Source of the DNA: a virus
Lineage: Duplodnaviria; Caudoviricetes
Strand: one strand, 5' to 3'
Virus record (IMG/VR): IMGVR_UViG_3300036876_000121
Coordinates: 1 to 25,940 of that record
Length of the DNA stretch: 25,940 bases
In this document: in pieces, positions 1,157 through 16,370 of the stretch
How positions within the stretch are numbered: the first letter of the stretch is position 1
Layout of the letters: each line of letters begins with the position of its first letter
Program-made: the position numbers and the translations under genes
The notes under the pieces: generated by a model
What the model was told of the DNA's origin: nothing
What the model saw: the letters and a program-made list of their open reading frames with translations, nothing else
Databases searched by the model: none

Positions 1157-1459
1157 CTAATCTATCTCCTCTGGAAGCCAGGTGTCCTTATCTCTAATAC
1201 GCCTAGTCCAGTGATTTTTTAATTGTTTCTCATGACCTTTCTGAGCACATTCTTTTGAACAAAAAACCGTTCTCTGACGTTTTTTCTCGTTCTCTTTTCT
1301 TATTATTTCGTTCTCACAAGTACGACAAATCAAAACCTTCACGTCTTGCTTTTCCGTAATATTTTCCATCTTTTTACGATAAGCGCAACGAAAACAATAT
1401 TTATTATTATTTATAAAGTCGTCTTCATTTCTATCTATTTTGCAACTATCGCATATCAT
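1157..1459 (-). CDS. Cys-rich zinc-finger protein (CDSC, CFRC, CRTC, FCSKEC)
   Basis: ORF 1157..1567. The probable start is ATG 1459 (MICDSCK...), because the upstream extension overlaps the scaffold leader. The FCSxxC motif is common in small phage Zn-finger proteins. Confidence 0.65.
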   Translation of the reverse strand: MICDSCKIDRNEDDFINNNKYCFRCAYRKKMENITEKQDVKVLICRTCENEIIRKENEKKRQRTVFCSKECAQKGHEKQLKNHWTRRIRDKDTWLPEEID

Positions 1460-1591
1460 GTAATCACTTTTTATTGGACTTATAAGATTTTTATTAAACA
1501 AAGTCAACAATAGGCGTACATAAGGCGAACTAGCCCTTCGCATTGGCGTATTTGTGGAGTTAGCCAACCACCGAACAAAAAGAGGAATTCA

Positions 1592-2356
1592 ATGACAGAA
1601 AGTCAAAACCAGAACAGCGAAATTCAAGAGGTAGCGCCTCAGGTAGAAACACAAGTCAGTGAAATAAAAGAGACTCAGAGCAATCAAGAGCCAGTCACGA
1701 ACCAGCACTTGAAGGCGATGCGTCTTAAGAATGACCAACTCGAAAGAGAACTGAAGCAATTACGAGACAATCAGATGGCCATAATGCAAGCACAACTTTC
1801 AAATGCGCCAGCTGCTCGTCAAGAGGTCGATGAATTCGATAAAATTGGTGATGATGAGTTTATTCCTTTTAGTAAGGTGAAAAAGCTGGCTGAGAGAAAC
1901 TCTCAGAAAGTACTCAAAAATACCGAAGAACTTGTACGTCAAGAAGTCCAAAAAGCTCTCAAGACACAAGAAGATAGTCAATTCCTAGATCGCTTGAATC
2001 GTAAATATTCGGATTTCTCCGAGATCGTCACTGCTGAAACTTTATCAATTTTAGAAGAAAAGGAACCAGAGTTGGCGGCTGCGATAGGAGCATCGAAAGA
2101 TGGTTATCAAATCGGAGTTCAAAGCTATAAGTACATCAAAGCCATGGGGCTTTCTAAAGAAGCAAAAGAAGGTAGAAGAGAAAAGGAAATAGACAAGGCT
2201 ATCGCAAAGCAAGAGAAGGCGGTTACGTCTCCTATGGCTTACGACAAGCGTCCTATTGCCCAAGCTTTTCAACTAACTGATGCCATGAAGAAAGATCTTT
2301 ATCGCGAGATGAACGGATATGCTGCAATGGCTAGCTCGGTTCCCGAAATGACCTAA
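1592..2356 (+). CDS. Probable capsid scaffolding protein
   Basis: Acidic Q/E-rich N-terminus and coiled-coil character. SD GAGG upstream. Lies immediately before the major capsid gene (synteny). Confidence 0.7.
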   Translation: MTESQNQNSEIQEVAPQVETQVSEIKETQSNQEPVTNQHLKAMRLKNDQLERELKQLRDNQMAIMQAQLSNAPAARQEVDEFDKIGDDEFIPFSKVKKLAERNSQKVLKNTEELVRQEVQKALKTQEDSQFLDRLNRKYSDFSEIVTAETLSILEEKEPELAAAIGASKDGYQIGVQSYKYIKAMGLSKEAKEGRREKEIDKAIAKQEKAVTSPMAYDKRPIAQAFQLTDAMKKDLYREMNGYAAMASSVPEMT

Positions 2357-2377
2357 TAGGTCTAAGGGAAATAAACA

Positions 2378-3541
2378 ATGACAGTATCAATTGCATCGTT
2401 GCCTCCACAGATACAACAGAGGTACAACGCAAAGCTTTTGTCAACTCCTGAGCATAATCTGATTCACCAGCTTTTTGCTACACCAGTTGAGTTGCCAGAC
2501 AATAATGGCTTTATTGATCGTCAGTCACGTTATGACAGACTAGATCTGTTTGAGGTGCCTCTCGATGATGGCCAAAACAACCCACCACCACAGCAGCTCA
2601 ACAGAGTCGACGTGGATTGCCGAGTACGCGTTTACGCTACTTATATCGTTTTGACCAGACAGGTCACAATTAGTAACGAAGATCCGGTTCTTAATAGTGC
2701 CGCGGCTCGTTTAGGACAGTCGCTTAACATTCTAGGTGACTTTAAATCTTCTCTGATTGACTTGGAACTCCTCGCTGCTTAAGCAGACGGACAACAAGGG
2801 GCAAGCGAAAGCAGCCTGAACGACTAAGTGAGAAGACCTCGAAAGAGGAAGCGATAGTCTGACCTCTATGGAGACATAGAGAGGTCGATCCGAAGAGGTT
2901 GACCCGCCTAGAAATAGGTCAAAAAAAAAGTAACAGACGGTAGAGAAACTCAGGACGCTCTTCAAAGAGATAATCTTGAGTCGAGTGCAAGTATTATAAA
3001 CTGCGTTGGTGGAACTAATGGTGATATCCCAACAGAGATGACAATCTCAGATGTGGATGACGTCTTCACAGTTCTGCAAAACAATAGCGGTGAATATATC
3101 ACCAACATTGTTGAAGCTGAGCTACGTTTTGGAACATCACCAATCGGCGATGCATATGGTTGTATGTTAACGACTAGGATGATTCCTACGTTATATAACA
3201 TGACTGGATTTATCAAGAAATTCCAGTATCCAAATATCTCTCAAACTTTGAGTGTGGAAATTGGCGGAGCGAACAACATTCGTTTCTTTGCTTCTGAGCA
3301 AGGTTCTGTCACTCCAAATGGCTCTATGCTTGGTAATGATATCGCAAATTGCTTCGTGAGCGCTAAAGAGGCTTACAAAGTTGTTTGGCAAGCAGGGGGT
3401 AAAGCACGCTTTATCTACCTACCGCCAGGGTACAATAATGATCCATGTATGTTGAGACATACAGCAGGTTGCTCGTTCTATCAAGGACAGTGCATCACTA
3501 ACGATCTTTGGATTCAAAACCTACGCTCAACAGGAATCTAA
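2378..3541 (+). CDS. Major capsid protein (probably N4-gp56-like, HK97 fold), intron-split: join(2378..2724,2941..3541), 315 aa
   Basis: Two same-frame ORFs (2378..2782 and 3038..3541) join after removal of 2725-2940, giving ...NEDPVLNSAAARLGQSL^RETQDALQRDNLESSASIINCVGG.... Motifs DPVL..., EIGGANNIRF and NDPCMLRHTAG recall N4-gp56-type capsids. Located after the scaffold. Confidence 0.85.
2725..2940 (+). ncRNA. Group I self-splicing intron (216 nt, no homing endonuclease ORF)
   Basis: P1: exon AGUCGCU (2718-2724) with IGS GGUGACU (2735-2741), U.G at the splice site. P10: UUCUA (2730-2734) with 3' exon UAGAG (2941-2945). P3: UCUUCUC (2747-2753)/GAGAAGA (2830-2836). P7: GACUA (2822-2826)/UAGUC (2855-2859). 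P8: CCUC-GAAA-GAGG. P9: CUCUAUG-GAGA-CAUAGAG. Terminal G at 2940. At least five in-frame stops inside (2780, 2825, 2855, 2909, 2915). Confidence 0.93.
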
Positions 3542-3554
3542 GGAGGATAAATAA

Positions 3555-4646
3555 ATGTTACCATTTTCTTTTATTGGGTCTTGGTCTTACACCAACCCAG
3601 CAACTCCAGTTGCAGTTAATATCCCAATGACAGCAAAACCCGACTGGTTTTTCGTTAAGGATGTAACGAACTGGGGCGCACAAAGCACAGCTGCTAATCC
3701 GATTTATGCGGAATGGTTCAGTGCTACCATGGCACAAGGTTCATACCTTGCTTTAGGACAACCAAGCTCTACAGGAGCTGGAGTCACCACATATGCTTCT
3801 CAAGGCACATCGGGCGGCTTTACATTCATTGATCAAGCTAACCCTCCAACTTTCACAAAAGTTGCGGTTACAACAGTCAATGGAACCACGTTTGTTGTTG
3901 CGACAGCAAATACAACAGGAATTAATGTCGGCGATTTCATTCGCTTATTTAACATTGTTGGTGGTCAGCAAATCAGCGGACCAAACCTTTATCAAGTTAC
4001 AGCCGTATCAGCTGGCGTAAGCATTACCTTAGGGTTTGCTGCTTCTGCTGCTTCTGCTGGATTAGTTGTTGCCAATGGAACAACTGGGTTCTACCAAAAG
4101 GTTTATCCTGGCTTCTTCCTGCCTAATACATTGCCAGTTGCTTACATTACGCAAGCGACTCAAGCAGTTGTCTATTTCTTCAGACAAAACCCATATACAC
4201 CAGGTGAACTTGTAGATTTCCAAATCCCAACACCTTACGGAATGATTCAATTAAGCAATCTGACACGTAAGGCCGGAAGTGGCCCTTTTACAAATAACCC
4301 ATCCGGTGCAGCAAGAGTCTTGAGTGTTGTTAATTCCGCAACTGTCTCATCGATCACTATCGACGTAGACACAACCGGCTTTACAGCATTCCAATTCCCA
4401 ACTTCGGCTGCCTTTGCAGGTGGAGCTTCTCCAGCTGTGTGTATGCCTGCCGGATCAGGTGTTGTGCCTCTTAATGGAAGTGCAACAATCCCTGCATCGC
4501 CTCCAGGAACAAACCTTGCTGACGCATTCGATAACAGATCGCAATACGTCATGAATATCGGTTTATCTGCTGTAGGAGTCGCGAATGCGAACATGCAAGT
4601 GTTTGCGTTCAAGGCTGATTTCGTCAACGGAATCACCAACGCATAA
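3555..4646 (+). CDS. Virion structural protein (head decoration/accessory), beta-rich, with C-terminal E1-FCCH-like domain
   Basis: Strong SD AGGAGG directly after the capsid gene. Rich in T/G/A/S. C-terminal ITQATQAVV...GMIQL...DTTGFTAF...PAGSG...DAFDNR. Confidence 0.7.
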   Translation: MLPFSFIGSWSYTNPATPVAVNIPMTAKPDWFFVKDVTNWGAQSTAANPIYAEWFSATMAQGSYLALGQPSSTGAGVTTYASQGTSGGFTFIDQANPPTFTKVAVTTVNGTTFVVATANTTGINVGDFIRLFNIVGGQQISGPNLYQVTAVSAGVSITLGFAASAASAGLVVANGTTGFYQKVYPGFFLPNTLPVAYITQATQAVVYFFRQNPYTPGELVDFQIPTPYGMIQLSNLTRKAGSGPFTNNPSGAARVLSVVNSATVSSITIDVDTTGFTAFQFPTSAAFAGGASPAVCMPAGSGVVPLNGSATIPASPPGTNLADAFDNRSQYVMNIGLSAVGVANANMQVFAFKADFVNGITNA

Positions 4647-15163: not shown

Positions 15164-16342
15164 TTAATCCTTATACGGGTCTTTGCATCTATCATCAGCC
15201 ATACAAACTCCGATAGGCGTCAATTTATGCAATATCTTTATTGTTCCTTCATGCGCTTTGAGGACTTCTTCGATCCTTTTGTATGCGTATGGTGATTCGT
15301 CAAGATCTCCTCCGCGCACTTCGACACCAATTTTTTTAATCCAGATATCGTGTTCTTCACGTTTGACGAGACCTTGCGTGAGCTTCTTTCCCGTTTTTCT
15401 ACAGGTTTTTCCTTTGGCTTGAGTTCTTCCAAGTAGACGTCCTGCTCCGTGAATAGTCGAGCACAGAGAAGCTGCTGATTCAGGGGATTCAACTCCTTCG
15501 AGGATAACCGACATATCTCCCATAGATCCTCCAACAAAACCTTTTTGACCAGGAAAAGATGGTGTTGCGCCCTTTCTGACGACCCATAGATCTTTATCAA
15601 AATGTCGCTCTTTCCAGGCAAAGTTGTGATGGTTATGGATTTCTTCCAAAATTTGTCCTCGAAGAATTTGCGCCACTCGTGAACATACCCAATCTCTTCC
15701 AGCGTAAGCATAGCGACCAGCAAGTTCCATGCATTTGAGATATTGGGTTCCGAGGTCTGAATTCTCATCAAGAACGACCGGCTCTGCGTGGACGCCATCT
15801 TTTCCTCCTGCCTGTTTTATGAAATGTGTTGCAATACTATGTCCAAGTCCTCTACTTCCGAAATGAACTCCAATCCATATTCTGTTTGATTCATCTGTAA
15901 AGAGGTCAACATAATGGTTTCCTGATCCCACTGTACCGAGTTGAGTTCTAGCTTTGTCTTTAAGTCCTTGTAACACTTCAATTTCATTCCAGATTGGGTC
16001 ATCGAAAAGGCTATGCTCAACTTTTTCATCATTTTTTCTTCCTACTCCAAAGCTAATCTTGCTCTGAATTTCATTCATCGTCCTATAAATGTTATCTTTA
16101 AGCTGTTCAGCAGAACAATCCACCATAACAGCCTTATTACCGCAAGCAATATCAAATCCCACGCCGTTAACGCAAATCTTCCCTTGGTAAGCAATAACAC
16201 CTCCAACAGGAATAGAATACCCAATGTGATGGTCGGCCATGAGGGCACCGTAAATCGCACCATACTTCATAGCCTCCTTCATTTGTTCTACTGCTTCAGG
16301 TAGAGGATCCCCCCAAACCGGAATTCCATCAATTAGATTCAT
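15164..16342 (-). CDS. rtcB: RtcB-family RNA ligase (3'-phosphate or 2',3'-cyclic phosphate/5'-OH ligase)
   Basis: Full motif set: DHHIGYSIPVGGV, GVGFDIACG, LGTVGSGNHY, HFGSRGLG, HNHHN, RKGAT, GGSMG, HGAGR (guanylylated His), DESPYAYK. Probable start ATG 16342; the ORF track extends to 16354. Confidence 0.95.
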   Translation of the reverse strand: MNLIDGIPVWGDPLPEAVEQMKEAMKYGAIYGALMADHHIGYSIPVGGVIAYQGKICVNGVGFDIACGNKAVMVDCSAEQLKDNIYRTMNEIQSKISFGVGRKNDEKVEHSLFDDPIWNEIEVLQGLKDKARTQLGTVGSGNHYVDLFTDESNRIWIGVHFGSRGLGHSIATHFIKQAGGKDGVHAEPVVLDENSDLGTQYLKCMELAGRYAYAGRDWVCSRVAQILRGQILEEIHNHHNFAWKERHFDKDLWVVRKGATPSFPGQKGFVGGSMGDMSVILEGVESPESAASLCSTIHGAGRLLGRTQAKGKTCRKTGKKLTQGLVKREEHDIWIKKIGVEVRGGDLDESPYAYKRIEEVLKAHEGTIKILHKLTPIGVCMADDRCKDPYKD

Positions 16343-16370
16343 TTTCCCTCTCAATTTTCATCACACAAAT

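Follow-up and report, generated by a model that had tools for sequence, protein, structure and literature searches.

The DNA examined here is a stretch of 25,940 nucleotides from a Caudoviricetes record (IMG/VR IMGVR_UViG_3300036876_000121), hereafter the window, in which the gene for the major capsid protein is broken by a segment that closes its reading frame. The locus raises the question of how a capsid protein is made from such a gene, and of whether the interruption serves the phage, serves only itself or is a lesion. A preliminary description of the window had proposed a compact group I intron and had given it a possible regulatory role. The first proposal was confirmed by sequence comparison: positions 2725-2940 are a group I intron without an ORF and without the P2 helix, located in the gene of an N4-gp56-type capsid protein, and its splicing is predicted.

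The interrupted capsid gene

Exon 1 (2378..2724, + strand, as are all features of the gene and intron given below) comprises codons 1-115 and two bases of Leu116. It spans positions 5-111 of the TIGR04387 profile and is 97% identical to residues 1-116 of the homolog P0004. Exon 2 (2941..3541) runs from the last base of Leu116 to the stop codon, covers TIGR04387 positions 115-317 and matches PHROG 1357 (major head protein). The 216-nt intron between them (2725..2940), assigned by homology, fold, Rfam and a family profile, follows U2724, the last base of exon 1, and ends with G2940, its omega-G. Six stop codons lie within it in the capsid frame (2780, 2825, 2855, 2900, 2909 and 2915), the earlier count having been at least five. 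An open capsid frame can be obtained with many U/G boundary pairs, so that the junction is not fixed by the frame alone and was therefore set by homology. Nucleotide alignment with the intron-less locus L003 delimits the insert to exactly 2725-2940, the boundaries proposed at first.

The search with exon 2 returned 638 relatives, and of the 120 listed ones 89 are 315 amino acids long. The predicted spliced product has this same length and aligns without gaps to all 89 of these intron-less homologs (among the matches listed), which bears out the expectation that excision rebuilds a continuous 315-residue protein. P0004, the closest among the matches listed, is intron-less, 97% identical to the spliced product and scores 104.6 bits on TIGR04387 (cut-off 60), the profile of the N4-gp56-type major capsid protein. 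Taken separately, the exons score 35.7 bits (positions 5-111) and 51.7 bits (positions 115-317), both below the cut-off, and fragmentation of the gene by standard annotation was thus correctly foreseen: gene callers report the capsid gene in pieces, and at the Rfam threshold the intron goes undetected (see below). On this reading of the gene, capsid synthesis in the window's phage must depend on intron removal.

Across relatives the capsid protein is ~97% constant and its DNA ~82%; residues R111-Q114 and R117-D121, which flank the intron site, are invariant. A PDB sequence search with the capsid protein found no more than a weak match to a capsid (E 0.41), and an AlphaFold model built from a 51-sequence alignment (pLDDT 33.5) was set aside. 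The window is more than 99.9% identical to G001, a complete 39,325-bp record that has terminal repeats and in which the terminase and portal ORFs are unbroken. Comparison with genome bins yielded eight matches in unrelated phyla, mostly to phage-sized contigs, and indicated no host.

Ribozyme architecture and predicted splicing

All group I hallmarks listed in the preliminary description (P1 with its U.G wobble, P10, the P3/P7 core, the guanosine-binding site, GNRA caps and omega-G) could be drawn. P1 (7 bp) pairs exon bases 2718-2724 with the guide 2735-2741 and sets the U2724.G2735 wobble at the 5′ splice site, while P10 (5 bp) pairs 2730-2734 with bases 2941-2945 of exon 2; both are read from the sequence. 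P3 (2747-2753 with 2830-2836) is 99% paired, and both bases vary in 7/7 of its pairs across the family. P2 is absent, as had been stated, because only 5 nt separate P1 and P3. In the 14-sequence alignment P4 (2761-2764/2795-2798) is 100% paired, P5 (2769-2771/2789-2791) 93% and P6 (2800-2802/2814-2816) 100%. P4 consists of four standard pairs and a conserved A.G, the P4-P5-P6 domain has an A-rich J4/5, and P5a (2775-2778/2783-2786) was drawn from the sequence. P6a (2805-2806/2811-2812) is a 2-bp hairpin with a GAAA loop, at the place that holds an endonuclease gene in relatives; that the window's intron carries none had also been noted. The guanosine-binding helix P7 consists of the pair A2820-U2860, the bulged C2821 and the pairing of 2822-2826 with 2855-2859 (GACUA/UAGUC). 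It is 99% paired, its G2822-C2859 pair is invariant (14/14 sequences) and J7/3 has 3 nt. P8 (2837-2840/2845-2848, GAAA loop), inside P7, was drawn from the sequence.

The 3′ domain (2861..2940) comprises P9.0, P9, P9.1, P9.2, a conserved A-rich tail and omega-G. P9 (2864-2870/2875-2881, GAGA loop), P9.1 (2883-2890/2897-2904) and P9.2 (2907-2910/2915-2918, GNRA-capped) were again drawn from the sequence. P9.0 (2861-2862/2919-2920), with 77% of cells paired, is the weakest element and is weakly supported. Its probable partner lies ~20 nt upstream of omega-G, as placed by the conserved 3′ tail at 2916-2940 (GGUCA, an A-run and GUAACAG).

The fold was compared with chance in an alignment of 14 short family members (584 cells in 42 pairs), in which 94% of the cells pair and 35 of the 42 pairs show compensatory changes on both sides. 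None of 500 shuffles came up to this. Controls slid along the alignment pair at 39-47%; the fold has an advantage in this comparison, since it was derived from the row of the window, whereas the compensatory changes were counted in the other rows. A further signal comes from the 40 introns that could be parsed among 47 distinct ones. In 40/40, the base two positions upstream of the P7 stem is paired with the one that follows the stem, and this closing pair co-varies with the bulge (AC/U 32, GA/C 6, UC/A 2), a bulged C going with an A-U or U-A pair and a bulged A with G-C; the five P7 stem pairs, being a condition of the parser, are no evidence. The fold z-score is -3.2. The recommended comparison with Rfam RF00028 succeeded in part: a 371-nt query matched at 2679-2881 (model positions 1-253; 27.6 bits, E 3.1e-5), the score remaining below the gathering score of 50, and a search of the whole window returned nothing at E<=1. 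The Rfam model and the subgroup scheme are reported to miss phage intron variants (PMC11878797; this and the other publications cited here serve as sources within their accessible text). A sequence-only profile built from 10 relatives, from which the window's intron and its closest kin were left out, scores the intron at 130 bits (E 1.7e-39).

Introns of subgroup IA2 are defined by P7.1/P7.2 helices between P7 and the 3′ strand of P3, and those of subgroup IC3, the Azoarcus type, by the presence of P2. The Azoarcus tRNA-Ile intron is of type IC3, measures ~205 nt and possesses P2. By these definitions the window's intron, which lacks P2 as well as P7.1/P7.2 (J7/3 being as short as given above), fits neither subgroup. 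It is like the Azoarcus intron in size and in a minimal periphery rich in GNRA loops, and unlike it in that the latter has P2 and sits in a tRNA, whereas the window's intron has an extended P9.1/P9.2 domain. The near-minimal size had been regarded as special; members of 202-227 nt are common in its family. With the IA2 phage introns (T4 td, nrdB, nrdD; Twort; Bastillevirinae, PMC11878797) its family shares the core, the bulged-C guanosine site, the placing of an endonuclease in a peripheral loop and the existence of deletion derivatives; a further difference is that the relatives of the window's intron put LAGLIDADG genes in P6a. For structural and engineering work, the family offers a compact ribozyme that lacks P2 and exists in dozens of natural variants.

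From established group I chemistry, P1 would present the bond after U2724 to attack by a free guanosine bound in P7. Omega-G 2940 would next occupy the guanosine site while P10 aligns exon 2, and exon 1 would then attack at omega-G, rebuilding Leu116 and the 315-residue capsid protein. A variant compatible with this scheme, to which we assign a minor share of probability, is that the intron is genuine and its splicing requires a host chaperone or another protein. The short P4 and the weak, distant P9.0 hint at a need for help from host or phage proteins, as do the missing P2 and the conserved 3′ tail, and many group I introns depend on or gain from protein factors in vivo (PMC3984707). Against such a need, the catalytic core is complete, P6a, P8, P9 and P9.2 are capped by GNRA loops, and no LAGLIDADG match that might act as a maturase was found in the complete sister genome. 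An RtcB-family RNA ligase gene lies at 15164-16354 (- strand) of the window and was matched in only four of the compared related loci. It was set aside: group I ligation needs no RtcB, and no link to the intron was found.

An intron family of the capsid gene

The location in a capsid gene had been presented as surprising, which is contradicted by published cases. Mycobacteriophage LittleE has a group I intron in its major capsid gene, with splicing established by RT-PCR and protein sequencing and with an intron ORF on the opposite strand (PMC3706429, Pope et al. 2013). The same report cites a Tuc2009 capsid intron and describes an ORF-less intron of 265 nt in a BAKA tail gene (PMC3706429). The LittleE and BAKA introns are like the window's in lying in virion structural genes, in the exon-1 U and the terminal G, in having related cores at different sites and in occurring in forms with and without an endonuclease; an antisense ORF is found both in LittleE and in relatives of the window's intron. 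They differ in that splicing was shown there and is predicted here, in the phage and capsid family, and in length, the window copy being shorter (216 nt). The capsid gene of crAss-like phages is likewise in several pieces through group I introns, with up to five fragments (PMC7886860, Yutin et al. 2021). Those are gut phages of 100-190 kb whose introns were found via protein domains, whereas the window's family is largely ORF-less and belongs to 39-kb phages with an N4-gp56-type capsid. The preference of phage introns for nucleotide-metabolism genes is still described as unexplained (PMC12350094). Capsid group I introns are thus already known, and the novelty here resides in the core-less inserts of relatives described in the last section rather than in the window's intron.

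Occupancy of the codon-116 site was scored in 80 loci found with exon 2, of which one is cut short and 79 are informative. The site is empty in 76 and occupied in three (L001, L002 and L080), two of which (L001 and L002) are identical to the window where sequence exists and are not independent carriers. Scanning for a pattern at this site retrieved seven loci, namely G001, three with introns of 1178-1184 nt and three with ORF-less introns of 214-257 nt. The long same-site introns (1169-1184 nt; L080, with 1169 nt, L273, L274 and L278) hold an antisense ORF of 309-353 aa in P6a. The two such ORFs that were scanned match LAGLIDADG_1 at E 4e-11 and 1e-10. The short ORF-less ones (214-257 nt) are found in L194, L195, L275, L276 and L279; that of L194 and L195, of 218 nt, has a core different from the window's.

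Related introns occur at 12 other sites of the capsid gene (coding nt 265, 288, 306, 309, 417, 656, 792, 838, 853, 857, 885 and 902), from which we infer that one intron family has settled in at least 13 sites of this gene. Within the 924 kb that surround 80 related tail genes, a set that seldom extends to terminase or portal genes, 33/33 family matches fall inside the capsid gene; five of these 33 comprise the introns at coding nt 902 together with one truncated intron at 306. The complete record G001 holds a single family copy by the 10-relative profile, and no endonuclease match was found in 22 further ORFs of that record. No free-standing endonuclease lies beside the window's capsid gene: the next gene starts 14 nt past its stop codon and the upstream neighbour has no family match. 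A small Cys-rich ORF at 1157-1567 (- strand) of the window has a weak HNH match (PHROG 1271, E 1e-5) and is conserved in intron-less relatives.

Several members of the family show structural variants. In four introns (L073:1575-1902, L075:2593-3000, L016:2536-2961 and L066:3555-3978) P6a holds 100-200 nt with short sense ORFs in place of the antisense LAGLIDADG gene, and the site-902 intron of L064 has a longer sense ORF interrupted by the locus end. P7 variants with one additional base in the 5′ strand are found in L163 and L168 (site 306), L152 (853) and L195 (792), and a hairpin in the 3′ domain of the L163 intron is tandemly doubled. The introns at L039:1173-1399 and at site 288 of L195 have an unusually long segment 5′ of P3, in which a simple P1 search found none.

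The core of the window's intron resembles those of another site more closely than those found at its own. Over 131 nt it shares 123 positions (94%) with the cores of L073 and L075, at site 417 (codon 139), as compared to 69-93 positions (53-71%) with seven same-site introns; cores therefore move between sites. In a tree of 46 cores, three of them from the same site (the parser had discarded another five same-site rows and one additional row), a single clade for these three was rejected (p-AU far below 0.05). Descent from a same-site mobile intron by loss of its endonuclease was set aside in view of the low same-site identity. The window copy likely combines a codon-116 guide with a core nearly identical to that of introns at codon 139, having arisen through exchange or retargeting between paralogous introns. 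Exchange and independent retargeting are indistinguishable because the exon sequence dictates most of the guide (P1). With at least 13 sites in one capsid gene and cores that do not follow them, the family is well suited to studies of the ways in which group I introns spread to further positions.

The patchy occupancy, the LAGLIDADG-bearing introns at the same site and the absence of any aptamer match fit a selfish element. We consider it very probable that the window's intron is functional and is a selfish, near-neutral passenger devoid of its own endonuclease rather than a regulator; its neutrality is deduced from the distribution across relatives. The capsid gene, constant in protein and variable in DNA, would be a durable target for homing endonucleases, and the window's intron would persist because exact loss is rare. 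The preliminary description had instead suggested a domesticated switch that gates capsid production, and hence head assembly, on GTP or Mg2+. Group I splicing does require guanosine and Mg2+. A riboswitch-controlled group I intron is known in C. difficile and splicing can be coupled to translation (PMC3984707), and the gene preference seen in the 924 kb is real. The switch nevertheless appears improbable to us, since the intron is missing from nearly all informative relatives and mobile versions share its site. Furthermore, the spread of the family over the gene fits homing to conserved codons, such as the invariant ones around codon 116, and homing targets usually sit at conserved codons (PMC3984707). 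The peripheral helices are minimal and no Rfam aptamer family matched in 2650-3020 at E<=10, which leaves room for an aptamer of an undescribed type.

Five RNA-type runs were retrieved by a run search, none with more than 0.06 of the query words. Four runs compared with window positions 2300-3600 contained only divergent relatives and no 2724-2941 joint, and carry no weight either way given the divergence of the strains; one run gave a single contig matching 61 letters past the capsid stop codon. That the locus is a dead pseudogene, a naturally two-part protein, an assembly artefact or a ribosome-hopping element is very improbable: the exons are separate ORFs as read and the RNA of these divergent relatives showed no junction, but each exon is otherwise undamaged and matches intact homologs at 97% identity, no second capsid gene was found among the scanned ORFs of the complete sister record and of the window, other phages have introns with different cores at this very site, and covariation supports the ribozyme fold.

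Core-less mini-inserts in related phages

Among the first 80 loci, four have an insert of only 38-47 nt after capsid codon 80 (L004:2136-2182, L032:2146-2187, L033:2147-2188 and L064:2147-2184), and more are found among L161-L196 and L280-L308. The window's own capsid gene has no such mini-insert. A scan blind to length, for any insert with a guide at the codon-80 site, used a pattern that fixed one valine codon, so that other alleles can escape it. It gave 28 matches, 18 of them in this capsid gene, and all 18 inserts measure 38-59 nt. Every one of the 18 genes also contains a full intron that begins at coding nt 306 (cut short by the contig end in one case), with an additional intron between the two in two genes. 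Conversely, a search for introns at nt 306 found 29 matches, 26 in this gene, with a mini-insert present in 23 and absent in three. The dependence is one-way: a mini-insert was never seen without the codon-102 intron, while the converse occurs.

All 21 mini-inserts tested shift the frame or carry a stop codon. Ribosome hopping was considered for those of L004, L032, L033 and L064 and rejected, as the codon before the resumption point mismatches the take-off codon. In the 18 distinct mini-inserts P1 measures 6-10 bp and includes the U.G wobble, P10 is partial or full and the last base is G; P1 and P10 track synonymous changes in the exon. The strand that follows their P1, which we call the tether, pairs over at least 8 bp with the exon directly before the P1 of the neighbouring intron in 14/18 cases versus 13/270 control windows, counts in which the mini-insert rows share kinship and are not independent events. 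The tether helix ends exactly seven bases 5′ of the neighbour's splice site in 16/18; the tether is absent in L032 and L033 and reaches only 5-6 bp in two others. The neighbouring full introns belong to several lineages of the 46-core tree.

The same layout is seen at a second site. In L279 (minus strand), whose capsid is only ~40% identical, a mini-insert of 50 nt at coding nt ~256 lies 35 nt before an intron of 690 nt, and L278 has a full intron of 689 nt at that mini-insert site. This pair suggests that mini-inserts arise by core loss.

The arrangement at these two sites, codon 80 beside codon 102 and the site in L279, suggests a shared engine: the core of the neighbouring intron probably excises the core-less mini-insert, which would be its satellite. 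The satellite would keep a guide (P1 and P10), the tether strand and a terminal G, and the tether, paired to the exon directly 5′ of the full intron's P1, would bring the P1 of the satellite to the position that P1 occupies in an intron with P2. One core would then perform two excisions, the satellite leaving first. If true, the satellite would represent a group I intron that occurs naturally and is not autonomous, on the way from self-splicing to a shared splicing machinery.

In the accessible literature our search found no natural core-less or non-autonomous group I intron of phages, only engineered systems. The nearest published precedents found are engineered ribozymes and small fungal inserts. 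In engineered trans excision-splicing ribozymes a group I core excises a short internal sequence, a reaction that is chemically established (PMC6155759). The guide is supplied there by the ribozyme, whereas the phage mini-insert brings its own and pairs beside its natural neighbour intron. The 'degenerate' group I introns of 56-81 nt in Phialophora SSU rDNA, like the mini-inserts short and endowed with P1 and P10, are reported to keep P7 and to splice alone (PMC3160393), whereas the phage mini-inserts have no room for a core. With the mini-inserts, the ability of a natural group I core to splice out a dependent second intron could be examined in a simple bench experiment. When four RNA runs were compared with the mini-bearing locus L004, one contig crossed the mini-insert site without the insert; it stems from a divergent strain and may represent an intron-less allele.

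Two further features of capsid genes among the relatives were recorded. The gene at L192:2501-3444 is shifted out of frame by one base close to codon 65, which may reflect an error of assembly. Those of L194:3-3464 and L195:3-3917 hold five or six inserts (six credible ones in L194), with exons down to ~19 nt.
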